A stretch of DNA of 64,000 nt, taken from contig NC_086097.1 of NCBI RefSeq assembly GCF_963921235.1, positions 54,624,001 to 54,688,000 of the forward strand, read 5' to 3'. Below are positions 7,169-63,391 of this stretch, piece after piece (position 1 is the stretch's first letter; every line of letters begins with the position of its first letter). The translations under genes were made by a program, and so were the position numbers. The DNA comes from Mobula hypostoma. Its lineage: Eukaryota. Under the pieces are notes generated by a model. It had not been told where the DNA came from and did no database searches. It saw only the letters and a list, made by a program, of their open reading frames with translations.

Positions 7169-7889
7169 TTACTTTAAAATGGGAAATTAGAACTGTACTT
7201 AATGATGTTTATTTCAATATACTTTTTCTGATAAAACTAAATTCGGACCCGGATCAGCGCTCACTCTTTATCGAAGGACTGAGTTCATGCAGCCACTCTC
7301 CCTGTATGCAGACGAAAAGATGTTTCCAATATTCTGAGATTTATGTGATTACTGGGCTGTATTTTATATCGGCCTCCTTCAGTTTTTTTGGTGTTTTCTT
7401 TCTTGTGGCCAATTGGTGGCTAATTTTTTGTATATGGGGGGGTGGTTTTGGTGCTACTGTCGCTGTTCTTTTCTATGAGTGAGGGGGTCAGGGATTATTA
7501 TTGTAGCCGTTTTTTTCTGCGAGTGAGGAGGTTGGCGATGGTTATTGTCACTGTTGTTTTTTTCCACAGATGAGGGAGTCAGGAGTTGGATGCTATTGTC
7601 ACTTTTTTTTGCATGGGGAGGGGGTAGAAGATATTGGGTTCTGCAAGTTTTGTTTCTTTTTTGTGCAGGGGAGTTGATGTTTTTTCTTTCATCAACTTCC
7701 ATGGTCTTTCTGTATTTCATGGCTCTCAGGAGAAGACAAATATCAGAGTTGTACATGTATACTTTGACAATAAAATGAACCTTTAAATTCCTACTATATA
7801 GTAGTTTGATACGCTTCATGCAACAGGCAAGTGTTTGAATATACAGCTATTAGCATAAAAATATATTAAATCCTCATCTCTTCTCATTA

Positions 7890-17556: not shown

Positions 17557-17754
<198 letters not shown>

Positions 17755-31444: not shown

Positions 31445-34005
31445 CTTTCAATCTTTTACTAAGCTCTTGTTGTGATGGAACATGAAATAAAATGCCTGTC
31501 ATTTTAGAAGCCTAATGCTGGGATGTACGAACAAAATAGCTCAATCACACGAGTCAGATACGAGCCCAGAGCCTCAACACTGGGGATAGCAACCTGCCCT
31601 GCTAGGCTGTACTGATATGGTTCACTTATCCCATTAGTGAATCTGCATTTATCAGACATTTTGTGGTGGTATCACTCTAGTGCTCTGAGTTGTCTGCTAG
31701 AGGCAGTCTAAGCCTCTGAAACATACTGGAGGATAGATATCATTGCTGCCAGTTGATTGGTTTGAGGTCTTGATCTTTGAACAATCTTTTCCTCAGAAGC
31801 TGTACTGGCACACTGGAGGGAATGATGAATTTAAGCATTGATGTCTCCCTTCACTCATAAGTGGGTTGTGTTTTCCAAGGCCATGTTATGGACTTTTATC
31901 ATTTGTAGGATTTCTTTGCGCAATGGAACAGGGAGGTACTGATACTTACTACCTGCTATGCTTTAGTGATAATGACGACTTGGACCTGGGACTCTAAATG
32001 TGTACATCAGCAAGTGTTGTCTGCACATTGCAGCTTGGTGGTTGAGGGTGATGTGACTATGACTCCGGGAGGGAATTGCCAAGGTTGAACTAGTTCCATT
32101 CCAGTGGGCACCTATCACTCATCCTTGCATTGAGTTTACAATCCAAATGAATGATTTCATACTTCTCACTTTGAACTCCAGATTTGCCATTTACTTTATT
32201 CCTCAGAGCCATTTTGTAACTTTCTACTTTATTGACACTACTTAGTTTGCCATTTAACAAGATTCTGCCACTGAATTTCTACACATAAATTTTTCAGTCT
32301 TTCATACAAGATGTTTGAAAATAAACCAAAATGCTTTGGAATTACCCAACCAAGGTGAAGGCACCTCCTGTCAAATTGAGGTTGTAACCATTAACCATAC
32401 TTGAGTAGATGTATAATAGTTAAGTTACCCAGAGACGTTAGTTCGTATTCTATCATGGCAGCTGGGAACTTTAAGTTTAAATAATTACATAAAGTAACTA
32501 TGAAATTAAAGGAGAAATAGTAATGTTAATTGTGAAATTGCCATTTTGTCACTTAAACCCATTTGGTTCATTAACTTACCCAGTCTAGCTTAACGTGCAT
32601 CTCCAGATCTAACAATGTCAACTGGGACGGTGTGACCTGAACTGCTTCCTCATTTAATGGACAACAGGGGGTGGACAACAAATCACAGCATTTCCATAGA
32701 CATTCTATGAACAGTGAGTTTTTATTTAAATCTCCAAAACAATTCTTATATACAAAACAAAGTTGCTTTTAATTCCATATGCTGTTAATTTTATTAACAA
32801 CTTCCTGTATGGAATATTATGAAATGCATTCAAAAACTTCAATTGGCAAAAAAATATTAACTTGTTCTGTTAAATGATCCCTTCAGTGCAGTTCCATCAG
32901 ATGACTGTACCTTTGAATTCTCTTGTGCGTGAAAACTGTGCAACCCTTGCATAAGCAACAGAGAGCAGTAAATCACATTTTCCAGAAATAAGGCACACAT
33001 TGCACATTATTGTCCACAATGCAGGAATGGACAGAGGTGCTAACTACAAAAAAGGCCACACATTCTACAACTTAATGCAAAAATTAATTATAATTGCTTA
33101 CAAAGTGTAATCTTATTAAATGTTGTTTGAAGCAACTAGTGTATCCCATTCAATTCCTATCCTTTAGCAGTCTTAAAAGCAAAAGGATTGACTTTGATTA
33201 AACTTCAACATGTTGAAAACACTGTCTACACTCACTGCAGTACTCTAGTGAATACGTTTTCAAAGAAGAAATAACTCAGAATCATCATTTACAGACTTAG
33301 CCCCCAGTCCAGTTTTGAATTCTTCTCTCAGCCTTCTCTCCCTCTCTCACTTCCAACACATAAATTAACATATTGGGTCTTTTCTCTTAGCTCCAGTGTA
33401 CAATGACACAGGTGATCCATTAGTCACAGAACAAAAGCAATCTCCAAAAGCAGATATACTGTAGGGATATCTGACCCACAGTATTTTAGGCCAAACAATT
33501 ATGACAGCTAAGTAACTTCACACTTCTTGTAAATGAAAATACTAGTTCTTCCTCTTATTGAAGCAATATGATTTTGAAATCTGTTGCAACTAACATTACT
33601 TACTGTATGACTCACAGTACAAAAGTCCACAGTATGAAGTGTATGTGGTGTGTTCTGAGAACAGGCCTACAGTATTTCCCCAAGATAAATCATGTATTGA
33701 TTAGTGTTTACAAAAGGAATACTAATACCTCTGGAATAAAGTAGAGGATTTAAAATGTTCGTGATTGCAATAAACATAGATTAATTCCTTAAGAGTAGCA
33801 GACAGTTATCTAAAAAGCTGCACGAGATTTTATATCTAAGACTATTTCTCATGAACATCTTGTGCGCTCAGTGGCATCTTTCACAAGCCATGTTGAAATT
33901 TTGCCTTTGACGTTGTGAAGTTTGTTTGTTTGCTATGTGCATGACGTATATGATCGTGGTCTTTCCATGACCACGATTGTTCTTAGCAATGTTTTCTAGA
34001 GAAGT

Positions 34006-37000
34006 AATCTCGGGATTGCTGCCTGTGCCACGTGCTAGCGAGTGCAAGAATAGCATGATCGGGTATATTACTGTGTGGCTGAAAGACTGGTGCAGGGGGC
34101 AGGGCTTTGGATTCCTGGATTATTGGGGCCTCTTCTGGGGGAGGTACGACCTGTACAAAAAGGACTGGTTACACCTGAACCCAAAGGGGTCCAATATCCT
34201 AGCGGCCACATTCAATAGAACTGTTAGGGAGGGTTTAAACTAATTTGACAGGGAGATGGGAACCGGAGTGACAGGGTTGAGGAAAGGGAAAACAGAAATA
34301 AATCAAAGATAGCATGCGACAGAGATGATAGAAAGAACAGGCAGGAGATGAGGCTTAATCACAGCCAGTGGCATGAGTCACAGGGCAATAGAGGCGTGGT
34401 GCAGTTAAAACAGAAAGCAACAAATACTGAGACTGAAAGTGTTATATTTGAGTGCACACAGCAAAAGGAAAAAAATGGACGATCTTGAAATTCAGCTATA
34501 GAATAGCAAGTATGGCATTGTGGCCATCTCTGAAACTTGGCCAAAGGATGGCTGCCATTGGGAGCTGAACGTCCAAGGATACACGGTGTTTTGGAAAGAT
34601 AGGTTAGTAGGCAGAGGGGGTGGTGTGGCTCTGTGTATAAGAAATAATATTAAATCATTAGAAAGAGATGACATAGGATTGGAAGGTGTAGAGCCTCTAT
34701 GTGTTGAGTTAAGAAATGGCAAGGGTAAAAGAACCCTAATGGCAGTTGTATACAGGCCTCCAAACAGTAGCCAGGATGTGGATTACAAATTACAGCAGGA
34801 GATAGAAAAGGCGTGTCAGAAAGGCAATGTTATGATAATCGTTGGGGATTTTAACATGAAAGTGGATTGGGAAAACCAGGTTAGTATTGGACCTCAAGAG
34901 AGAGAATTTGTGGAATGTCTGAGGGATGGCTTTTTAGAACAGCTTGTTGTTGAGCCCACTAGGGGATTGGTTGTGCTGGATTGGGTGTTGTGCAATGATC
35001 CAGAGGTGATAAGAGAGCTTCAGGTTAAAGAACCCTTAGGGAACAGTGATCACAATATGATCGAGTTTACATTGAACTTTGAGAGGGAAAAAGTAAAATC
35101 CAATGTGTCATATTTCAGTGGAATAAAGGAAATTACAGTGGCATGAGAGAGGAACTGGCCGAAGTTGACTGGTAAGGGACATTTGCAATAAGGACAGCAG
35201 AGCAGCAATGGTTGGAGTTTCTGCAAAAAATGAGGGAAGTACAAGACAGATACAGTTGAAGTCAGAAGTTTACATACACATTAGCCAAATATATTTAAAC
35301 TCAAGTTTTTCACAATTCCTGACATTTAATCCTAGAAAACATTCTCTGTCTTAGGTCAGTTAGGATCACTACTTTATTTTAAGAATGTGAAAGGTCAGAA
35401 TAATAGTAGAGAGAATGATTTATTTCAGCTTTTATTTCTTTCATCACATTCCCAATGGGTTAGAAGTTTACATACACTTTGTTAGTATTTGGTAGCATTG
35501 CCTTTAAATTGTTTAACTTGGGTCAAACATTTTGAGTAGCCTTCCACAAGCTTCTCACAATAAGGTGCTGGAATTTTGTTCCATTCCTCCAGACAGAACT
35601 GGTGTAACTGAGTCAGGTTTGTAGGCCTCCTTGCTCGCACACGCGTTTTCAGTTCTGCCCACAAATTTTCTATCGGATTGAGGTCAGGGCTTTGTGATGG
35701 TCACTCCAATACCTTGACTTTGTTGTCCTTAAGCAATTTTGCACAACTTTGGAGGCATGCTTGGGGTCATTCTCCATTTGGAAGACCCAATTGCGACCGA
35801 GCTTTAACTTGCTGGCTGATGCCTTGAGATGTTGCTTCGATATATCCACATAATTTTCCTTCCTCATGACGCCATCTATTTCCTGAAGTGCACTAGTCCC
35901 TCCTGCAGCAAAGCACCCTCACAACATGGTGCTGCCAGCCCCATGCTTCATGGTTGGGATGGTGTTCTTCGGCTTGCAGGCCTCACCCTTTTCCCTCAAA
36001 ACATAACAATGGTCATTATGGCCAAACAGTTCAATTTTTGTTTCATCGGAGCAGAGGACATTTCTCCAAAAAGTAAGATCTTTGTCCCCATGTGCACTTG
36101 CAAACTGTAGTCTGGCTTTTTTTAATGGCAGTTTTGGAGCAGTGGCTTCTTCCTTGCTGAATAGCCTTTCAGGTTATGTTGATATAGGACTCAGTTTACT
36201 GTAGATATAGATACCTGTTTCCTCCAGCATCTTCGCAAGGTCCTTTGCTGTTGTTCTGGGATTGACTTGCACTTTTCGCGCCAAAGTACGTTCATCTCTT
36301 AGGAGACAGAATGCATCTCCTTCCTGAGAGGTATGACGGCTGCGTGGTCCCATGGTGTTTATACTTGCATACTATTGTTTTTACAGATGAACGTGGTACC
36401 TTCAGGCGTTTGGAAATTGCTCCCAAGGATGAACCAGACTTGTGGAGGTCCACAATTTTTTTTTCCTGAGGTCTTGGCTGATTTCTTTTGATTTTGTTTG
36501 TAAACTTCTGACCCACTGGAATTGTGATATAGTCAATTAAAAGTGAAATAATCTGTCTGTAAACAATTGCTGGAAAGATTACTCATGTCATGCACAAAGT
36601 AGATGTCCTCAACATCTTGCCAAAACTATAGTTTGCTAATATGAAATCCGTGGAGGTGATTAAACAATGAGTTTTAATGACTTCAACCTAAGTGTATGTA
36701 AACTTCTGACTTCAACTGTATATTCCAAATAAGAAATTTTCAAAGGGAAAAAGGGAAAAGGACACTGCCATGGCTGACAAGTGAAGTCAGAGCCAAAGTA
36801 AAAGCAAAAGAGAGGACATACAAGGAAGCCAGAGTTAGTGGGAAGACAGAGGATTGGGATGCTTTTTAAAATTTGTAGAAAGAAACTAAGAAGGTCATTA
36901 GGAAGGAAAAGATGAATTATGAAAGGAAGCTGGCAACTAATATCAAAGAAGATATTAAAAGCTTTTTTAAGTATATAAAGGGTAAAAGAGAGTCGAGGGT

Positions 37001-38787
37001 AGATATAGACCAATACAAAATGACACTGGAGATATTGTAATGAGAGATGCAGAGATGGTAGAGGAACTCGATGTGTATTTTGCATCAGTCTTCACAGTGG
37101 AAGATATCTGCAGTATACAGCACATTCAAGAGTGTCAGGGAAATGAAGTTTGTGCAGTGAAAATTACTACTGAGAAGGTGCTCAGGAGGTTTAATAGTCT
37201 GAGGGTAGATAAATCTCCTGGACCTGATAGAATTCACCCTCAGGTTCTGAAGGAAGGAGCTGGAGAGATTGTGGAGGCATTAACAATGATTTTGCAAGAA
37301 TCGATAGATTCTGGCATTGTACGTGATGACTGGAAAATGGCAAATGTTACTGCGCTATTTAAGAAGGGTGGGAGGCAGCAGAAAGGAAACTATAGACCTG
37401 TTAGCCTGACATCAGTGGTTGGGAAGTTGTTGGAATCGATTGTTAGGGATGATATTACGGAGTACCTGGAAGCACATGACAAGATAGGCCAAAGCCAAGC
37501 ATGATTTCCTGAAAGGAAAATCCTGCCTGACAAACCTACTGCAATTCTTTGAGGAAATTACAAGCAGGGTAGACAAAGGAGCTGTAGTAGACGTGGTGTA
37601 CTTAGATTTTCACAAGGCCTTTGCAAGGTGCCACACATGCGGCTACATAGCAGGACCAGAGCCCATGGAATTACAGGGAAATTACTAGCATGGGTGGAGC
37701 ATTGGCTGGTCAGTAGAAAACAGGGAGTGGGAATAAAGGGATCCTATTCTGGCTGGCTGCCAGTTACCAGTGGAGTTCCACAGGGGTCAGTATTGGGACC
37801 GCTGCTTTTTACGATGCATGTTAATGATTTGGACTATGGTATTAATGAATTTGTGGCTAAATTTGCCAATGATACAAAGATGGGTAGAGGAGCGGGTAGT
37901 GTTGAGGAAACAGAGAGCCTGCAGAGAGTCTTGGATAGTTTAGGGGAATGGGCAAAGTGGCAAATGAAATACAATGCTGGAAAGTGTACGTTCATGCACT
38001 TTGGTGGAAGAAACAAACGGGCAGACTATTATTTAGATGGAGAGAGAATTCAAAATGCGGAGATGTAAAGGGACTTGGGAGTCCTTGTGCAAGATACCCT
38101 AAAGGTTAACATCCAAGTTGAGTCGGTTGTGAAGAAGGCCAATGCAATGTTGGCATTCATTTCTAGAGGTATAGAATATAAGAGCAGGGATTGATGTTGA
38201 GGCTCTATAAGGCACTTGTGAGACCACACTTGGAGTATTGCGTGCAGTTTTGGGTCCTTATTTTAGAAAAGATATACTGACATTGTAGAGGGTTCAGAGA
38301 AGATTCATAAGAATGATTCCAGGAATTAAAGGATTACTGTATGAGGAACATCTGGCAGCTCTTGGGCTATATTCCCTGGAGTTCAGGAGAATGAGGGGGA
38401 ATCTCATAGAAACATTCTGAATGCTAAAAGGCCTGAACAGATTAGATATGACAAAGTTATTTCCCATGGTAGGGGAGTCTAGGACAAGAGGGCACAACTT
38501 CAGGATTGAAGGGCGTCCATTTAGAACTGAGATACGGAGAAATTACTTTAGTCAGAGGGTGGTAAATCTGTGGAATTTGTTGCCATGAGCGGCTGTGGAG
38601 GCCAACTCATTGGGTGTATTTAAGGCAGAGGTTGATGTCCTGGCTAATCAAGAACCTATCTAAGGGTATGGGGTGAAGGCAGGGGAGTGGGGATGACTGG
38701 AAGAATTGGATCAGTCCATGATAGAATGGTGGAGCAGACTCGATGGGCCGAATAGCCCATTTCTTCTCCTATATCTTATGGTCTTAT
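34006..38787 (+). mobile_element. Near-full-length CR1 LINE (ORF1 3' part, APE, RT), decayed, interrupted by the SB-like Tc1
   Basis: VISGLLPVPRA...WLHLN, ISETW...GGGVAL...YRPP...GDFN...SDHNMI, NYRPVSLTSVVGK, GVPQGSVLGP. 3' end CTTATGGTCTTATG. Confidence 0.92.
35253..36718 (-). mobile_element. Tc1 transposon of the Sleeping Beauty IR/DR family, decayed
   Basis: TIR CAGTTGAAGTCAGAAGTTTACATACAC at both ends, TA duplication at 35251-52 and 36719-20, and inner direct repeats. Transposase fragments [62 protein letters not shown] and [12 protein letters not shown], with stops and frameshifts. The 5' UTR and ATG are deleted. Confidence 0.95.
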
Positions 38788-44391: not shown

Positions 44392-44740
44392 CTGAAATTT
44401 TCTCTTGGTAACCCTTGGTGAAGAACTGCATGGCAGTGGCGGCTCTCCACGGCGTCCGCAAGAGCCCCTGTCTCCCGGGATCCTCGCCGAGCCCTCTCAG
44501 GATAGCCGAGTACGCAGCTTGCAGGCTCGGCAAGTTCATCTCATTATCCTCGGTGCTGCGAGTCCGTTCCTCATTCCATTGAGTTGCCGCTCTTGGCTGC
44601 GCAGTCCACTGCGGCGACTCCGAAAGTCCGTTCAACCAGACTCCCGTTTCATCGCTAGTGGGCACCGGGAGCCTGCTCGAACCGGCACCGCTCAACGCCA
44701 CGGCCTTGCTCCCGTCAGCGAGCTGCTCTGCGTAATCCAT
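44392..44740 (-). CDS. GCH1: GTP cyclohydrolase 1, coding exon 1
   Basis: ATG at 44740-44738. Translates MDYAEQ...[48 protein letters not shown](D). Phase-1 donor G|GTAGGG at 44391, the same position as in vertebrate GCH1. Lies in a CpG-rich island. Confidence 0.96.
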
Positions 44741-45020: not shown

Positions 45021-47572
45021 ATTTAAAACGGACGAGTAATGAACACTAACTAGATGGTCAAATTCTAGTAGTGAGAAAATGGCAGAGAAGTTTGAAGTTT
45101 CGGAGTGTTCGTACTTTGAGACTGTAGGGTGCAAGTCCACAGCTCGTTGAAAATGTTGACACAGATGCTTGTCCTAACAGATCACGGGTTTGAGGATCAG
45201 AGTGGGGATGTTATGTTACAGTTGCACGTTATAAACACTGATTATACCACACATAAAGATTATTGTGTACAATTTTGGCCACAGCACTACAGGAAGGCAC
45301 TGATAGGCATGAGTACATTAGAGATTCTCCAGCCTGCAGCAAAACCCAATCACACATTGTGCATCCAAAAATATATGAGAATTGGCAGCAGGTGTATTAT
45401 CACTGCCATAAAGTGAAAGTAGCTGTTTTGTTCAGCAGTACACAGTTTTATAAGACATGACAAGACAGTTTTGTAAGTTACAAATAATGCATCATCATTA
45501 CATGCCGTGGATGATCATGGTCTTATGACCATGGTTGTTCTTGACAAATTTTTCCATAGAAGTGGTTTGCCTTTGCCTTCTGAGGAAAGCATTTAATATG
45601 CTTGTCTTCGCAGGTCGAGGTATTGTCGATCAGAGTAGGGATATCATATTGCAGTTGCACAAAAACATTAGTTACACCACACATAAGATTATTGTGTACA
45701 GTTTGACACCCTACTACAGGAGGGGCTGATGGGTGTAAAGAGTGCATTAGAGATTCACCAGAGTCTTGCTCGGAACGAAGGAGACATTTAAACATCTCTA
45801 GGGTGAGATTTTCGCCCCAAACAGAGGGCTATGAATTCCTGGAAAAAGATGGTTGCAGTTGCAACACTTAAAATGTGTTTGGACAGGTATTAAAATTGGA
45901 AAGGTGGAGAGGGATTTAGATCTAATTCAAAATTGACCTAAAGGTTCTTTTTCTGTGGCATATAGTTACATAACTACTCGATGGTAAGAATTCACGCCAT
46001 GTACAGTATTTGGCCTAAAATCAAATTCAGACAATGCAAGGAAGAAAAATGGTAATAGATGCATTAAAACTGTTCCAAATGACTGGGAAGTACAGAATCA
46101 TTAGTCCAGTCTCAGGGTAATGGAGTATACCATTTAGAACTACATCCAAGTTTTCTTATCCTAGAACCAGATGAAATAGTGGAGGCAAAGTCAGTAAATA
46201 TACTTAAGAAAAAGGTGCATATATTTCACAATTTTATGAATGTATCCCTCTCACCATAGGCTCGTAATGAGTTAGTTATTACTGTGAATACAAGCTAATA
46301 GTAACCTACCTCTACAAGGCATGGAAATAACAACGAAAATGCCATTTCCAATAAATAAACATGTCTAACGTAAATATGATTTGGGTAAACACAAAATAGA
46401 GGTTTCAATGTTCCTTCTGAATGAAATTAAGGCAATTACCTATATGAACATCGACCCACCAAAGCAAATTCACTGTTCACCAGGAACCACTAATTTGGCT
46501 CACGCCAAGCACTAACTTGGATCAAAATTGTATTGACAAAATATTTTAAACTATAACAAGCAGAATAATACTAGATAATACAAAATAAAGGGCCCATCGT
46601 ATATATTTGTCTATAGTGTGCATGTAAGTGTTGGAGCTCACTGTTGCATAATCAATTCAGTTTGCTTCATTATGTTTACTCACGGTACCGAAATGGCTCT
46701 GCGCTGAAGAACCAGTCCAAGTGAAAAAAAATCCATGCAACATCCAAGGAAAAAGGCATCAAACTTTCTCTAAAGTTGTGTGCTAGATAGCTAGCTAGCC
46801 AAAAGTTAACCATGAGACCAAAGTCTGTATGAGGATTGTTGTGTATGTGGCCTGGTTACACAACAATACTATTAATAAAAACGCTGGAGACAGGAGCATG
46901 CTTAATAGCGCATGCTCAATATGTGTCTAATAGCGCATTCAACGACGTTACTAAAAAAAATATAAAGTAGTTCCTTATTATACTGTAGGCTATATGGTAC
47001 ACTTCTCCGCTTTTAATTTAATAGTGTATCAACTTCTTTTTTACTGGGGCGCTATGCTAAACAAATATGTTTACCCCCCTTAACATACAAACACCTACCA
47101 TTTGTTTACTTAGTATCAAATTATAACAAAGTAATGTAATAATATCAAATTATGACAAGCCTTTTTTTTACTTTTGTTCTAAGACCCATTTATAACTCAA
47201 GTCTCTGGGGGGGGGTCTTCTCTGCCTCTCCAGGTAATGTCTGTCAATAAACTTGTTTGTTTTAATACAGATTTCCATATAAAAGTCATGAAAAGTTGAT
47301 CTCTGAACATAGGGAGTTAAGAAGATCTGCGCCGCCAACTTGCTAAGAGTTCTAGGCAGCAGATCACCTCTGTATGATGAAGACTCCTCTGTGCAGCTGT
47401 CCTAGATATATACGCAGCTTCGTGCTATCACTTGTCTTCCTTACCCATGTCTCATTTGTTCCAACTGAGCTAGTTACACAGCCAATCTTCATATTCTCCT
47501 TAGATTCCAAATAGATAGCCTGACCTTTATGATACCATCTCTTATCGCAATATAACTTTCCATCTGCTATTC

Positions 47573-48352
47573 ATGCTTCATATCTTTGTGCTGGTGATTC
47601 AGCAGGAGCGCTGGGAAGACGCTCAGGAGAAGACGGAGATGCTGTCACTTTTTGTGGAACACATCATTTTGGGAGTTAAAGAAATACATGATAAATTGGA
47701 GAACAAGGTTGCATTCTACACTGGTCAATTTGCAAAGAATTTGAACAGTAACTCTGATGTGAGATCCCGAGGGCTCTTTCAGGCTGTGATTCAGGTCCTC
47801 AGGGACTGTAAAAATAGTGCAGGATGTCTGTTCTTCAGGTATGATCTGAAAGAATGTACAATTTGCTTAGGAGAACTCAACGATCCCATCCTGCTTCCAT
47901 GTGATCATTTTTACTGCTTAAAATGTATAAAGCAGTGGCTTGAATCAGGACAACGATTCTGTCCACTGTGCCGTAGTTCTCTAGACGATGATTATGTACC
48001 AGCGGTAACAGAAGAAATAAGTAAAGCTGTAGCAAAATTAATCATATTTCACAAGAGGTGATGCATTTTTTGTAGCTTCGGTTTCCATGGTCTGCTTCAA
48101 AGATGACTTGCCATCAACAAGAAGTGCTTGGTGATCTGCTGTCTCTGCTAGTTATACAAAAGTCGGGACAATCCAATGACTCACAGAAGGATCAGTACTT
48201 TACCAGTAATCGTTCACCATTTGATGAAGCAGTTGATCGAAATCTTGTTGTTCGTTCCATTGTTCTTAAGCTGCTGTTAAAGTACAGTTTTGCTGATATT
48301 AAAGATTACCTGCAGTGCTACCTGTCTGGCTCAAGAGGGAGAATTCCTTCAG
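47573..48352 (+). pseudogene. RNF213: Processed (intronless) fragment of RNF213/mysterin covering the RING region
   Basis: SLFVEHIILG...SDVRSRGLFQAVIQVLRDCK...CTICLGELNDPILLPCDHFYCLKC...CPLC, then after frameshifts AFFVASVSMVCFKDDLP / EVLGDLLSLL...SPFDEAVDRNLVVRSIVLKLLLKYSFADIKDYLQ. This is collinear with RNF213. Frameshifts near 48060 and 48115; no introns. Confidence 0.9.
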
Positions 48353-48354
48353 GT

Positions 48355-48575
48355 GCACATTCAGCTGGTGGCGTAGTGGCATCAGCGCCGGACTTTGGAG
48401 CGAAGGCTCCCGAGTTCGAATCCAGCCGGCTCCCTTGCACGCTTTCCATCCGTGCTGGGTTGAGCATCGAGCTAGCAACTCGGCCTCGTAAAAATAAGAA
48501 AGCCTGCTAAAAAAAAACGGCGTCATGACAGCATCCCGATGACTCCACTTGGAGTTAGGGGCTTTCTTCTTCTTC
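48355..48575 (+). mobile_element. tRNA-derived SINE (tRNA-Gln-like head), CpG-rich and probably young
   Basis: A box TGGCGTAGTGG, GGACTTTGGA loop, B box GAGTTCGAATCC, acceptor-like pairing AGCTGG/CCGGCT, and a (TTC)n tail. The anticodon stem is unpaired, so this is not a functional tRNA. Confidence 0.8.
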
Positions 48576-49309: not shown

Positions 49310-51445
49310 AGATGGTATGCTGCCTCCCAAGTGCCAGGGTCAGGGATGTCTCAGATCGCGTCCACAACATTTTGGAGAGGAAGGGGCAGCAATGACATAG
49401 GAAGGAAAAGCAATGAGGTCCTGAAAAGAGAATTTAGAGAGCGAGGTAGAAAGCTGAGAAGTAGGAACTCCCGGGTAGTAATTTCTCGATTGCTATCTGT
49501 GCCACATGCCAGTGAGGGTAGAAACAGGATGATTTGGCAGATAAATGCGTGGCTGAGAAGCTGGTGCAGGGGACAGGGCTTCAGGTTCTTGGATAATTGG
49601 ATCTCTTCTGGGGGAGGTATGACCTGTTCAAAAGTGACGGGTTGCACCTGAACCCGAGGGGGACCAATATTCTCACGTGCAGGTTTGTTAGAGCTGTTGG
49701 GAAGGGATTAAACTAACTTGGCAAGGGGTAGGAACTGGAGTGAAGGGACTCAGGATAGGTTGGATGATAAACGTCAAGATAGCGTGCAGTCAGACTGTCA
49801 AGAAGGGCAGGCAGGTGATGGGACTTAGTTGCAGCCAAGAGGCTGAGTATCAAATCATTAGGGATGCAGAATCAGAAAGGATAGCATATATGTTACTCAA
49901 GGTGTTGTATCTAAATATGTGTAGTATAAGAAATAAGGTGGATGATCTTGTTGCAATATTACAGATTGCCAGGTATGATGTTGTTGCCATCACTGGATCG
50001 TGGCTGAAGGATGGTTGTAGTTGGGAGCTGAATGTCCAAGGTTACACATTATATCGGAGAGATAGGAAGGTAGGCAGAGGGAGTGGTGTGTCTTTACTGG
50101 TAAAGAATGGCATCAAATCAGTAAAAAGATGTGACAAAGGATCAGAAGATGTTGAATCCTTGTGGGTTGAGTTAAGAAACTGCAAGGGTAAAAGGATGTT
50201 AACGGCAGTTATATACAGGCCTCCCAACAGTGGCTGGGAGGTGGAACACAGGTTACAACAGGAAATAGAAAAAGTGAGTCAAAAGGGCAATGTTATGGTA
50301 GTCATGGGAGATTTTAATACGCAGGTCGACTGGGAAAAATCAGGTTGGTAATGGATCTCAAGAGAGTGAGTTTGTTGAATGCCTAAGAGAACTTTTTAGA
50401 GTGGTTTGTTGTTGAGCCTACTAGGGGATCAGCTATACTGGACTGGGTGTTATGTAATGAACCGGAGGCGATTAGGGAGTTTAAGGTAAAATAACCCTTA
50501 GGAACCAGTAACCACGATATGATTGTCTTCAACTTGAAATTTGACAGGGAGAAAGTAAAGTAGCAGTATTTCAGTGAAGTAAGGGAAATTACAGTGGTAT
50601 GAGAGAGGAGTTGGCCAAAGTAAATTGGAAGGAGCTGCTGGCAGGGATGTCAACAGAGCAGCAATGACGTGCGTTTCTGGGAAAAATGAGGAAGGTGCAG
50701 GGCATGCGTATTCAAAAAATGAAGAAATACTTAAATGGTGAAATAGTACAACCGTGGCTGAGAAGGGAAGTCAAAGCTATTGTAAAAGCAAAAGAGAGGG
50801 CATACAACAAAGCAAAAGTTTGTGGGATGATAGAGGATTGGGAAGTTTTTAAAAATCTACAGAGAGCAATTTAAAAAAATTAGAAGGGAAAAGATGAAAT
50901 AATATAATATCAAAGTGGATAGTAAAAGTTTTTTCAAGTATGTTAAAAATAAGAGAAATGAGAATGGCTATATGACTGCTAGAAAATGAGGCAGGTGAAA
51001 GAATAAAGGGTGACAAGGAGATGGCTGATGAACTAAATGAGTATTTGGCGTCAGTCTTCACTGTGGAAGACACTAGCAGTATGCCTGATGTTGTAGTGTA
51101 TGAAGGAAGAGAAGTGGGTGCAGTTACTGTTACAAGAGAGAAGGTGCTCAAAAAGCTGAAAGACCTGAAGGTACATAAGTCAACGGACCAGAGAAACTGC
51201 ACCCTAGGGTAATAAAAGAGGTAGTTTTGGAGATTGTGGTGGCATTAGAAATGATCGTTCAAAAATCAATGGATTCTGGCATGGTGCCAGAGGACTGGAA
51301 AATTGCAAATGTTACTCCACTCTTTAGAAAGGAAGAAGGCAGCAGAAAGGAAATCATAGACCAGTTAGCCTGACCTCAGTAGCTGGGAAGATGTTAAAGT
51401 CAATTGTTAAGGATGGCCCAATTCTGCTCCTATGTCTTATGGTCT
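49310..51445 (+). mobile_element. CR1 LINE (ORF1 end, APE, start of RT) with internal deletion joined to its 3' tail
   Basis: GSNDIGRK...VVISRLLSVP, then YLNMCSIRNK...YRPP...GDFN. Jumps at about 51413 to GGCCCAATTCTGCTCCTATGTCTTATGGTCT. Confidence 0.88.
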
Positions 51446-54922: not shown

Positions 54923-55362
54923 CCAATTAAGGGATAGAGAGAGCAAACGAAATTCACAAGGGGGCAGAATTCTAGACAATTGGTATTAAGGACAAAGTGC
55001 AGACTAAGGTACAATACAGTAAGCAAATATGATTATAAATGGTTCAATTTGCAAAACAATAGTGCAGAGCTCGGAATAAATGAAATATAAATTGTATTTT
55101 TGAAGGAGCAAGGGCAAGATAGCTCAGAAAATTGTTAACTCGAACGTATGATTTACAGAAGCAGAAAAGATGTACAAAGTCAGAGGTCAAAAAGAGAGCA
55201 ATTGCATGCAGAAGGAAAAGAACTTGCAGTCTTAAGGACAGAGCAGCAGCAAAAGAGATCTGCACCAGTTACACAGAATGCAAACCTCTGACGAACAAAC
55301 CATGACTACCATTGTTATATTGAATGGAACTTAATAAAATCTGTTGCGCTCATGCCAATATA

Positions 55363-57388
55363 CAGTGGCATGCAAAAGTTTGGGCACCCCGGTCAAAATT
55401 TCTGTTACTGTGAATAGCTAAGCAAGTAAAAGATGACCTGATTTCCAAAAGGCATAAAGTTAAAGATGATACGTTTCTTTAATATTTTAAGTAATATTAC
55501 TTTTTTATTTCCATCTTTTACAGTTTCAAAATAACAAAGTTTGGGCACCCTGCATGGTCAGTACTTAGTAACACCCCCTTTGGCAAGTATCACAGCTTGT
55601 AAACGCTTTCTGTAGCCAGCTGAAGCCCAATTTATACTTCTGCGTCAAATGTACGCCGTAGGTACCGCGTACCCTACGCCGTAGGTGACGTACACCTCCC
55701 CAAAAAAGTAACTCATGCGTTGTGGTGCCGCAGACTGCAACAACTGTGATTGGTCCGCTTGGTAGCATCACATTTCCTCCTACGCATTTCCGGTTGCTTT
55801 TCTCTGCCATGTCTGTACACTGATGCGAAATAAATAGTTGGAGATGATGAAACAAATCGTCAAATCTACCTGCCAACATCCGAAAATATTTGAAATGCGT
55901 TACCTTGTCCATGTCTCTCACGAAGAAAATTGACACAGTAGCATAGAAACCCTACCGCCAACTAGCGTCTTGGCGGTGAATTGCAGACACAACTACGCAT
56001 GCTCGCTACGGCATAGGGCGACGCAAAAGTATAAATCAGGCCTATGGCATAGCCCGTACACACAAATATAAATCAGGCTTAAGAGTCTTTCAATTCTTGT
56101 TTGGGGGATTTTCACCCATTCTTCCTTGCAAAAGGCTTCTAGTTCTGTGAGATTCTTGGGCTGTCTTGCATGCATTGCTCTTTTGAAGTCTATCCACAGA
56201 TTTTCGAGGATGTTTAGGTCGGGGGACTGTGAGGGCCATGGCAAAACCTTCAGCTTGCGCCTCTTGAGGTAGTCCATTGTGAATTTTGAAGTGTGTTTAG
56301 GATCATTATCCTGTTGCAGAAGCCATCCTCTTTTCATCTTCAGCTTTTTTACAGACGGTGTGAAGTTTGCTTCCAGAATTTGCTGGTATTTAATTGAATT
56401 CATTCTTCCCTCTACCAGTGAAATGTTACCTGTGCCACTGGCTGCAACACAAGCCTAAAGCATGATCGATCCATCCCCATGCCTAACAGTTGGAGAGGTG
56501 TTCTTTTCATGAAATTCAGCACCCTTTTTTCTCCAAACATACCTTTGCTCATTGCAACCAAAAAGTTCTATTTTAACTTCATCAGTCCACAGGACTTGTT
56601 TCCAAAACGCATCAGGCTTGTTTAGATGTTCCTCTGCAAACTTCTGATGCTGAATTTTGTGGTGAGGATGCAGGAAAGGTTTTCTTCTGATGACTCTTCC
56701 ATGAAGGTCATATTTGTGCAGGTGTTGCTGCACCGTAGAACAGTGCACCCCCACTCCAGAGTCTGTTAAATCTTCCTGAAGGTCTTTTGCAGTCAAATGG
56801 CCTATGTGCAGTTCTCTCAGAAAGTTTCCTTGGTCTTCCAGACCTCAACTTGACCTCCACCGTTCCTGTTAACTGCCATTTCTTAATTACATTACAAACT
56901 GAGGAAACGGCTACCTGAAAACGCTTTGCTCTCTTCTTATAGCCTTCTCCTGCTTTGTGGGCATCATTTATTTTAATTTTCAGAGCGCTAGGCAGCTGCT
57001 TAGAGGAGCCCATGGCTGCTGATTGTTGGGACAAGGTTTGAGAAGTCAGGGTATTTATGAAGCTTTGTAATTTGCATCACCTGGCCTTTCCTAATGATGA
57101 CTGTGAACAAAGCCATAGCCCTAACAAGCTAATTAAGGTCTGAGACCTTGGTAAAAATTATCTGAGAGCTCAAATCTCTTGGAATGCCCAAACTTATGCA
57201 TGGTGCTTTTTTTTCCACTCTAAAATTGTACAAAACAAAAATAATACACTAACCTTGCTTACAACATTGAAAAGAATGTTTCACCTTTAACTTTATGACT
57301 TTTGGAGATCAGTTCATCTTCTACTCACTTAACTATTCACAGTAACAGAAATTTTGACCAGGGGTGCCCAAACTTTTGAACCCCACTG
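55363..57388 (-). mobile_element. Tc1 (DD34E, IR/DR type) transposon, second family, decayed
   Basis: TIR CAGTGGCATGCAAAAGTTTGGGCACCCC.GGTCAAAATTTCTGTTACTGTGAATAG, TA duplication at 55361-62 and 57389-90. Transposase pieces GEGYKK...GRPRK, WTDEVKIELFG, QQDNDPKH, SPDLNILENLW and AKGGVTKY. Confidence 0.93.
55624..56079. mobile_element. PIF/Harbinger-like non-autonomous element nested in the Tc1 transposase
   Basis: Splits the transposase codons ...RLL|AGYRK. TIR AGCCCAATTTATA / TATAAATCAGGCT. 3-bp TGA/TAA duplication at 55621-23 and 56080-82. No transposase. Confidence 0.72.
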
Positions 57389-60829: not shown

Positions 60830-62715
60830 GGTCTATGGCCCAAGGATAAAAGGCAGGAGCGAGTTGCGGCAGTGTAGCAGAGCTTTGAGCAATGACCAAT
60901 TGGCGTTTGGGATTGATTAGTCAGAGCAAATTAAAGGAAGGCAGGGGCAAGAGCAGCAGCTGTCATCTGAGTGGACGTAGAATGGTGATCTTAACGCTTT
61001 AGCTCTTCAAGGCTTCAGCGAAGAGTGGCTTCACTCAAAGAAAGCAAAGGAAAGAAAAGCTCAAGTTTTTTCCTTCTCTTTATATCTGCTTAGCTAGGAC
61101 AGTAGAGATGCCAGACAGGATAGTGAAATGGCTCCTCCTGCGGGATGTGGGAACCAGGGAAACCTCCAGTGTCCCTGACAACCACATCTACGAGTAGCGC
61201 ATCCAGCTGCAGCTTCTAACAAACCACATTAAGGAGCTGAAGCTGGAACTGGATGAACACAGCTAGGAATCACTAGATTTTGGAATGGTTCCAGAAGAAT
61301 GGAAAATTGCAAATGTCACTCCAGTCTTCAAGAAGGGAAAGAGGCAGAAGAAAGGAAACTATAGGCCAGTTAGTTTAATCTCAATGATTGGGAAGATGTT
61401 GCAGTTGATTATTAAAGATGTAGTCTCAGGGTACTTAGAGGCACATGATAAAATCAGGCGTAGTCAGTATGGTTTCTTCTAGAGAAAGTCTTGCCTGACA
61501 AATCTGTTGGATTTCTTTGAAGACAAAGGAGAATCAGTTGATACTGTGTACTTGGGATTCTCAGAAGGCCTTTGACAAGGTGCCACACGAGGCTGCTTAA
61601 CAAGCTACAAGCCAGCCCACAGTATTACAAGAAAGATTCTAGCATGGATAAAGCAGTGGCTAATTGGCAGGAGGCAAAGCGTGGGAATAAAGGAAGCCTT
61701 TTCTGACTGGCTGGCAGTGACTAGTGATGTTCTACAGTGGGCTGTGTTGGGACGGATTCCTTTTCCGTTATATGTTAATGACTTGGATGATGGAATTGAT
61801 GGCCTTGTTGCAAAGTTTGCAAACGATATGAAGATAGGTGGAGGGCAGGTAGTTTTGAGGAGGTAGAGAGGCTACAGAAAGCCTTAGACAAATTAGGAAA
61901 ATGGGCAAAAAAATGGCAGATGGAATACAGTGTTGGGAAGTGTATAGTCATGCATTTTTGGTAGAAGAAATGAAAGGGTAGACTATTTTCTGGAGGGAAA
62001 ATACAAAAGTCTGAGGTGCAAAGGGACTTGGGACTGCAAGATTCCCTAAAGGCTAATTCGCAGGTTTAGTCCGTGTTGAAGGTGGCAGGTGCAATGCCAG
62101 CATTCATTCAAGGGGACTAGAATATAAAAGCAAGGACGTAATGTTGAAATTTTATAAAGTATGGTGAGGCCTCTCTTGGAGTACTGTGAGCAGGTTTGGG
62201 CCTCTTCTCTTAGAAAGGATGTGCTGAAACCGGAGAGGGTTCAAAGGAGGTTCACGAAAATGATTTCAGGATTCAAAATGCTTGTCATATAAAGAACATT
62301 TGATGGCTCTGGGCCTATATTTACTAGAATTCAGAAGAATGAAGGGTGACCTCCTTGAAACCTATGAAATGGTGAAAGGCCTTGATAGAGCGGATGTGGA
62401 GATGATGTTTCCTATGGTAGGAGAGTCTAAGATGAGAGGACACAGCTTCAGAATAGAGGGGTGTCCTTTTAGAACGGAGATGAGGAGGAATTTCATTAGC
62501 CAGAGAGTGGTTAACCTGTGGAATTATTTGCCACAGCCAGCTGGGGAGGCCAAATCTTTATGTTTATTTAAGACAGAGGGTTATAGATTCTTGATTGGTC
62601 AGGGCATGAGGGGATATGGGGAGAAGGCAGGAGATTGGGGCTGAGAGAAAAACTGGATCAGCCATGATGAAATGGGCCAAATGGCCTAATTCTGCTCCTA
62701 TACCTTATGATTTTA
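60830..62715 (+). mobile_element. CR1 LINE (5' UTR/ORF1 start fused to RT half by internal deletion)
   Basis: ORF1 N-terminal CxxCxMW-like remnant near 61130-61260, then VPEEWKIANVTPVFKKG...NYRPVSL and a 3' tail. Confidence 0.85.
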
Positions 62716-63391
62716 TCTGATTCCATTGGAATCATCAAGCAAAAGGGAACATTTCAGCCTCCTAAATCAAGGACTCCATTAGACTAGCAAGGTTGCAGCG
62801 ACAGGACAGCCACTACCAAAACTCATGCCCCTGCAGAAGGGATAAATAGGCTGAGGCAAAAATTAGAAGGAGGTGATTAAAACAAAGGTTAAAAAAATGT
62901 GAGAAAAGCTAACAAGTTATATTTTGAGCAAAGTAGCATTGGTATTCAGATTTATAATCAAAGTGTTGAAAAAAAAATTAAAAATGCTAGAAGCATAAAT
63001 TCGGTTTAAAAGAGACTTGGTTACAACCAAAGCACAAGTAGAAGTTTAAATTATTTTTTTAAAAAAACAAAAATCAGGAAAATGGGAGAGGGATTGGAAG
63101 TTGGGCAAACAAGACAATAATTACAGAAGAAATTGAATGACAGAGTGAAAACTGAACCAGTAGAACAGCAACGATGCAAGATTTGGGTAAGAGGTAACCA
63201 TAGACGTCACGATAATAGTGATGCCTGAGGGATGGTGAATCAACATGGAAAGCAGGGAAACACAAAGCAAATAAACTGTATTTTGTTAGAATGGGTGATA
63301 CTTTAAAAGGGGATGCAAAACTACTCAAGCAAAATAATAGATTTCATAAAAGTAATCATATGGTTCTCCAAAACGTGTTTTAGTTCAATGG

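Follow-up and report, generated by a model that had tools for sequence, protein, structure and literature searches.

We report a dead transposon of the Sleeping Beauty (SB) clade in the first intron of GCH1 of the ray Mobula hypostoma, and we consider it very probable that the element crossed horizontally between bony and cartilaginous fishes. The element was studied in a stretch of 64,000 nucleotides (the window, whose coordinates are used throughout), in which a preliminary description had pointed it out as a candidate for such a transfer. The features on which the analysis relies are the following, where L001 is the reference SB element described below.

17584..17688, minus strand: second coding exon of GCH1, bordering the intron downstream, placed by protein comparison
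34003..35250, plus strand: CR1-type LINE before the insertion, 73% identical to a copy at 49477-50699
35251..35252, no strand: TA target-site duplication, low-coordinate side, placed by the empty-site register against a second CR1 copy
35253..35481, minus strand: IR/DR end of the right (3') side, containing an outer and an inner repeat for transposase binding; differs from L001 at 13 of 228 sites
35482..36495, minus strand: broken SB-clade transposase gene, residue 3 to the stop codon, placed by alignment with L001, with HTH_SB and DDE_3
36495..36496, minus strand: junction of a 171-bp deletion, placed by alignment with L001, with loose ends at 36495 in 3 of 4 listed runs
36496..36718, minus strand: left (5') IR/DR end, 24 differences in 222 sites from L001
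36719..36720, no strand: TA target-site duplication, high-coordinate side, placed by the same empty-site register
36721..38787, plus strand: the same CR1-type LINE after the insertion, 72% identical to 50752-51415 and 71% to 61267-62716
44393..44740, minus strand: GCH1 coding exon 1, upstream border of the intron, 114 of 116 residues identical to Mobula birostris GCH1

The Tc1 element occupies 35253-36718 (1,466 bp) between TA copies at 35251-35252 and 36719-36720. Its outer ends are identical at 32 of 33 bases (window self-BLAST, E 2e-8), and each end is made of an outer and an inner direct repeat with a spacing of 198 bp. The left and right IR/DRs are alike at 149 of 238 positions, compared with 156 of 236 in L001. 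The element thereby combines the terminal inverted repeats and TA target-site duplication of Tc1/DD34E transposons with the ends of the SB clade, which measure about 220-230 bp, contain an outer and an inner repeat each and are not identical on the left and right; this IR/DR architecture is listed as an SB feature (PMC7827188). A TA-flanked Tc1 of about 1.47 kb with asymmetric IR/DRs of about 230 bp, as initially described, is indeed what the coordinates give.

The LINE split by the element has an endonuclease-like frame (34502-35146) within its 5' part. This LINE is probably a CR1, as it was labelled in the preliminary description and as an ORF2 peptide suggests. When its flanks are compared with another copy in the window, the register is kept across the site: in each copy the two aligned parts are separated by four bases, which means that a single TA was duplicated without any loss of sequence. 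The insertion is therefore as clean as had been claimed. Since the element lies between GCH1 exon 1 (44740-44393) and exon 2 (about 17688-17584), its placement in intron 1 also stands, and a Tc1 element splitting a CR1 in this intron is a confirmed observation.

The six coding exons of GCH1 were all located on the minus strand of the window (about 44740-44393, then 17688, 10529, 8808, 7120 and 146), and the SB-clade element has the same sense as the gene. Exon 1 shares 114 of 116 residues with Mobula birostris, 109 with Hypanus, 99 with Pristis and 83 with Amblyraja, then 79 with sharks, 66 with Callorhinchus and 63 with Salmo salar. Exons 2-6 are identical to Salmo at 123 of 129 residues and all exons together at 186 of 245, the first 55 or so residues being without alignment to Salmo (53% coverage). 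The host had been presented as a probable cartilaginous fish, with a teleost host named as grounds for giving up the transfer; exon 1 shows a myliobatiform ray, most likely of the genus Mobula (114/116 to Mobula against 63/116 to Salmo). Two further observations concern this locus. An intronic open frame on the minus strand (7457-7723) is 96.6% identical over 89 residues to an alternative C-terminus, that of M. birostris GCH1 isoform X2. Upstream of GCH1, two adjacent intronless open frames lie on the plus strand at 47519-48510, and Pfam assigns a C3HC4 RING finger to the first of them; they presumably resemble a piece of RNF213, and are perhaps a processed or captured fragment.

The identity of the transposase was established on protein structures, on Pfam domains and on a full-length element. 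Pieces of the minus-strand frame match only Sleeping Beauty structures, namely 5CR4 (E 3.6e-65) and 2M8E/6URS, and the piece covering the PAI domain is identical to 2M8E at 39 of 42 residues. Pfam recognises HTH_SB and DDE_3 in the transposase pieces, two of the seven submitted pieces having no Pfam match. The SB-like peptides quoted in the preliminary description are present in this frame and match the SB structures 5CR4 and 2M8E. As reference we used L001, a metagenome contig with a complete 1,639-bp SB element, whose protein is identical to the pT2 vector transposase at 336 of 340 residues and to trout copies at 94%. In the same contig, a different Tc1-like element (about 46-1610) in the opposite orientation adjoins the SB element at a shared TA, as judged by eye.

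Aligned with L001, the window element shows 99 substitutions in 1,463 sites (93.2% DNA identity, K2P 0.071), which are distributed over the left end (24/222), the gene (62/1009) and the right end (13/228). The non-coding ends are 83.6-94% alike to SB, including 89% and 94% per end, while the coding part is identical at 947 of 1009 sites and the transposase remnant at 286 of 333 residues. Coding DNA identity exceeds 80% within the SB clade and is 61% to SB-like elements (PMC9777934), and the coding identity found here lies above the former value. The likeness of both IR/DRs and transposase to SB, which had been put forward ahead of any alignment, is thus confirmed by an alignment that includes the non-coding ends.

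The copy is dead, as had been noted from a deletion of the 5' UTR and ATG, from stops and from a changed catalytic residue. Compared with L001, a deletion of 171 bp at 36495/36496 has taken the start codon and the 5' UTR, along with the final 6 or so bases of the left inner repeat; the gene contains five frameshifting indels (+2, +1, -8, +2, -1) and three premature stops (residues 105, 195 and 268). In the catalytic triad (residue numbering of PMC7827188), D153 and E279 are retained and D244 is replaced by E. These positions align in register without a gap, which preserves the DD34E spacing of 34 residues between the second D and the E. The dS to L001 is 0.056 and the dN 0.067 (ratio about 1.2), fourfold sites differ at 7 of 123, and 18 of 58 CpG positions have the typical change. 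Together, the ratio and the CpG-type changes indicate the neutral decay of a dead copy. An intact frame of 340 residues, the 5' UTR and the triad, which characterise an autonomous element, are all lost or damaged here, and we reject any function for a copy that is deleted, frameshifted and neutrally decaying.

The main question is whether such an element could have been inherited from the gnathostome ancestor, with slow evolution in cartilaginous fishes and selection on the transposase and ends keeping it similar on both sides. Mutation and synonymous rates are indeed very low in sharks (PMC10587355, PMC13100897), and a topology that unites all teleost SB rows and leaves the ray rows outside stands, being 3.9 log units worse than the best one without rejection (AU p 0.083). 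The dates nevertheless speak against inheritance. Cartilaginous and bony fishes separated about 450 My ago (PMC10787021), and the whale shark and zebra shark, separated for about 50 My, have a median dS of 0.061-0.111 (PMC13100897). Scaled by hand to 450 My, with host dS extrapolated, this shark rate leads to an expected dS of about 0.55-1.0 against the 0.056-0.071 seen, and the 6.8% DNA divergence of the element lies some 8-18 times below this slowest vertical expectation; the teleost synonymous rate is faster than the shark rate used for the scaling. In other words, the element and its SB relative, with a dS of 0.056 and fourfold differences at 7 of 123 sites, diverge as much as two sharks that split about 50 My ago. 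Selection offers no way out, the dN/dS being about 1.2. As the element dS is far below the expectation of even a slow shark clock and the copy evolves without selection, shared inheritance is very unlikely.

Other parts of the window argue in the same direction against vertical descent. Its CR1 copies are only 72-73% alike among themselves, and the first 55 or so residues of GCH1 fail to align with Salmo. On the other side of the balance, GCH1 exons 2-6, at 123/129 residues, are more similar to Salmo than the transposase remnant is to its reference (286/333), as expected under purifying selection. Outside the window, and again against vertical descent, TcMar elements make up 3.28% in skates and 2.30% in rays and are nearly absent from sharks (0.14%) and chimaera (0.03%) (PMC12361510). 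We regard vertical descent as effectively refuted by the dS of 0.056 where extrapolation from sharks gives about 0.55-1.0, and give it next to no credence. The horizontal transfer proposed in the preliminary description is, in turn, supported by this divergence.

A low divergence might also come from an artefact, either salmonid DNA or a laboratory SB vector assembled into the ray sequence, and the sequencing runs provide some ground for this suspicion. Reads were mapped on 32500-38500 for 4 of 24 listed runs, one for each of four organisms. Each mapped run gave 51,000-192,000 records with a depth above 100,000 on the element, while flank bins at a distance from it never exceeded 41, a low depth that we take as chance, and all four cover the SB element without the flanking CR1. 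The majority letters of each run depart from the window at 92-95 positions, and every one of the 40 listed majority letters is the L001 letter when compared by eye (96 sites in all, 56 being outside the list). Being rich in SB and lacking a LINE that is recurrent in this window, the four organisms are not rays; we infer that they are teleosts, probably salmonids. Reads of the ray host were not recognised, none of the 24 listed runs holding half of the words of the window (best share 0.41). The best read holders are non-ray organisms.

Against an artefact stands the exact duplication of a TA in a ray CR1 whose register continues past the site. The 99 substitutions, the eight or so indels and the CpG-type decay (18/58) exclude a vector, and contamination of that kind was rejected. 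Salmonid contamination is contradicted by six ancestral residues in the window that are missing from salmonid SB, and by a second ray copy. The latter (P0026) is an independent Mobula hypostoma gene model, in which about 200 SB transposase residues are joined to the LACTB2 winged-helix domain. P0026 and the window share seven residues against L001 in 197 compared sites, and this set is absent from all other SB-like proteins examined (254 of 549 after the identity filter). The seven shared residues indicate a ray subfamily and not contamination, and we hold an artefact to be highly improbable. As a LACTB2 isoform X2 model, P0026 is itself either an exonised SB copy or an annotation artefact.

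P0026 is the only chondrichthyan name among the 98 matches of the protein search; a search at shorter length gave no further chondrichthyan name in the best 120 of 444, and ten protein clusters with intermediate residues contained no ray name. In metagenome contigs, 2 of the 80 loci kept belong to the SB clade (L001 and L012). L012 was considered as a member of the ray subfamily and rejected, only two differences from L001 being common to L012 and the window. No match to the element was obtained in plasmid records, nor in viral contigs searched by pattern and by protein, and the 15 loci from prokaryote genome contigs reached at best 58% identity, none being SB-clade.

Two trees were used to place the ray copies, neither of which includes the near-SB elements named in PMC9777934 (eels, tarpons, alfonsino, tuna and bichir, given there by codes). 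In the 26-row tree, the two ray copies group with salmonid and vector SB (97/94) and remain outside the salmonid cluster (87/95); a group of Sparus, Coilia and Prochilodus stands beside the SB rows within a wider clade (100/99). The 13-row tree likewise puts the ray rows with salmonid SB (89/89) and sets the salmonid cluster apart from them (90/97), the two ray rows pairing at only 75/79. The window row therefore belongs to the same branch as the SB reference transposase. Of 37 sites at which SB and the Sparus/Prochilodus group differ, the window shows the SB residue at 24, that of the outer group at 6 and a different one at 7. The six outer-group residues range over residues 143 to 317, and P0026 agrees at both of those it covers. 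The window copy thus carries only part of the derived residues of the narrow salmonid SB subfamily, to which we do not assign it. The element had first been described as of the salmonid SB type; salmonid-type SB is the closest sequence found, while the ray copies form a sister subfamily just outside it. Judging from these residues and branches, the ray family most likely diverged from the SB line slightly ahead of the emergence of the salmonid form.

This position bears on the donor. With the ray rows outside salmonid SB, the donor need not be a salmonid. A real transfer from salmonid SB itself, in which the ray residues would come from later change or from recombination with another SB-clade family, draws on the salmonid-type SB being the closest sequence found, on the SB residue at 24 of 37 separating sites and on values of only 87/95 and 90/97 for the branch between salmonid and ray rows. 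We nonetheless think it quite unlikely, given the outer-group residues at 6 of 37 sites, their spread from 143 to 317 and the agreement of P0026 at the two it covers. A similarly intermediate state is found in P0294, an ENA protein. This SB-clade fragment is SB-like in its background but, as the ray copies do, retains outer-group residues at 143 and 230; its host, teleost or otherwise, may be closer to the donor.

The direction of transfer is likely from teleost to ray, although the topology that leaves the ray rows outside is not rejected (AU p 0.083). A reversed course, from ray to teleost, or a parallel one, in which both lines would have received the element separately from a third host, would agree with the branching of the ray rows outside salmonid SB, with the age of the copy, which is roughly tens of My and not young, and with the record of SB in a mollusc (PMC9777934). 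It is countered by the diversity of the SB clade in ray-finned fishes, 107 species in 33 orders (PMC9777934), and by the best trees, which nest the ray rows among teleost elements; we keep it as possible, if rather doubtful. As for the age, three-way distances of 31, 27 and 40 in 197 sites assign about 70% of the divergence of the window copy to its terminal branch, and a rough estimate at the shark rate would make the window copy some 35-80 My old.

We therefore favour a course in which an active SB-clade Tc1 element would have crossed between teleost and ray lineages, most likely from teleost to ray, either directly, perhaps with prey, or through a shared parasite or virus. It would then have multiplied in the germ line of a myliobatiform ray, where the transposase of the family would have cut and pasted one copy into a TA of a CR1 already present in GCH1 intron 1. 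The TA would have been duplicated by host repair, and the inserted copy has since decayed without selection. The 171-bp deletion may date from before the jump, the defective copy being mobilised in trans, or from after it. In the SB mechanism (PMC7827188), the four repeats are bound by the transposase, which brings the two ends together, excises the element and inserts it at a TA; this dinucleotide is then duplicated during repair by the host. The TA duplication and the clean ends seen in the window are products of this established mechanism.

A second TA-flanked Tc1 was observed at 55361-57388 on the minus strand. It has IR/DR-type ends but belongs to another family, with about 50% protein identity to SB, and an element of about 420 bp with inverted ends of 22 bp (about 55620-56045) is nested near the 3' end of its transposase gene. 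We consider this second Tc1 a candidate second import, possibly of the ZB-like family of PMC9777934. On a tentative view, which we would call conceivable and short of probable, the ray SB could be the relic of a pre-salmonid master that entered myliobatiforms some 35-80 My ago, the skate and ray excess of Tc1/mariner could be owed largely to repeated imports from bony fishes, the second Tc1 being another of these, and some copies could have entered transcripts, such as the LACTB2 isoform model.

The finding concerns a new host group and a known process. It extends the host range of the SB clade to cartilaginous fishes, a group barely covered by the large transfer screens, and the ray copy is a dated neutral marker common to both sides of a 450-My split. 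With slow mutation in rays, their copies may keep an older state of SB than the salmonid copies do, and the ray SB family offers a direct test of whether the TcMar bursts of skates and rays came from outside. We assume that the Mobula assemblies are probably later than the 2022 SB survey. According to that survey, the SB clade is found in 107 ray-finned fishes and one mollusc, with none in Chondrichthyes, and transfer concerns 65.7% of SB hosts (PMC9777934). A vertebrate-wide screen counted at least 975 transfers, mostly of Tc1/mariner elements in ray-finned fishes (PMC7070016), and exchanges of Tc1 elements between fishes are commonplace (PMC7070016, PMC9777934). The main text of PMC7070016 has no mention of cartilaginous, shark, skate or Chondricht, and chondrichthyan terms are absent from the consulted text of PMC12400950. 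DNA transposons represent 2.90% of the M. hypostoma genome in a mobulid genome preprint whose relevant passages leave transfer undiscussed (10.64898/2026.10.27.761883). In the literature searched, mostly open-access and apart from repeat databases, SB or Tc1 transfer in rays was nowhere described.

Several known systems can be compared with this element. For rays and skates, PMC12361510 describes a TcMar excess with one or more bursts, in the parts consulted without family-level assignment or mention of horizontal transfer. The Tc1 elements of the DTSsa1 group, shared by teleosts and lampreys, resemble our case in their high identity over a deep vertebrate split and in the neutral decay of copies; they differ in being of another family and in showing 95-99% identity with a parasite-host link, and PCR was negative in the cartilaginous fishes tested (PMC3516227). 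The ZB-like Tc1 of one chondrichthyan is similar as a teleost-centred DD34E Tc1 clade in a cartilaginous fish, but it is a separate clade, the SB and ZB groups being 52-54% identical in DNA, and intact copies are reported for it (PMC9777934). Unlike the SB clade as surveyed, the present element lives in a host group for which that survey had no SB or SB-like element (PMC9777934). Finally, it departs from the rebuilt SB (SB10/SB11/SB100X) and the natural salmonid elements behind it in its ray host, its six residues of the outer teleost group and the deleted, dead state of the window copy, and is like them in the IR/DR ends, the TA duplication, the DD34E spacing, the PAI domain (39/42) and the 93.2% identity of its DNA.
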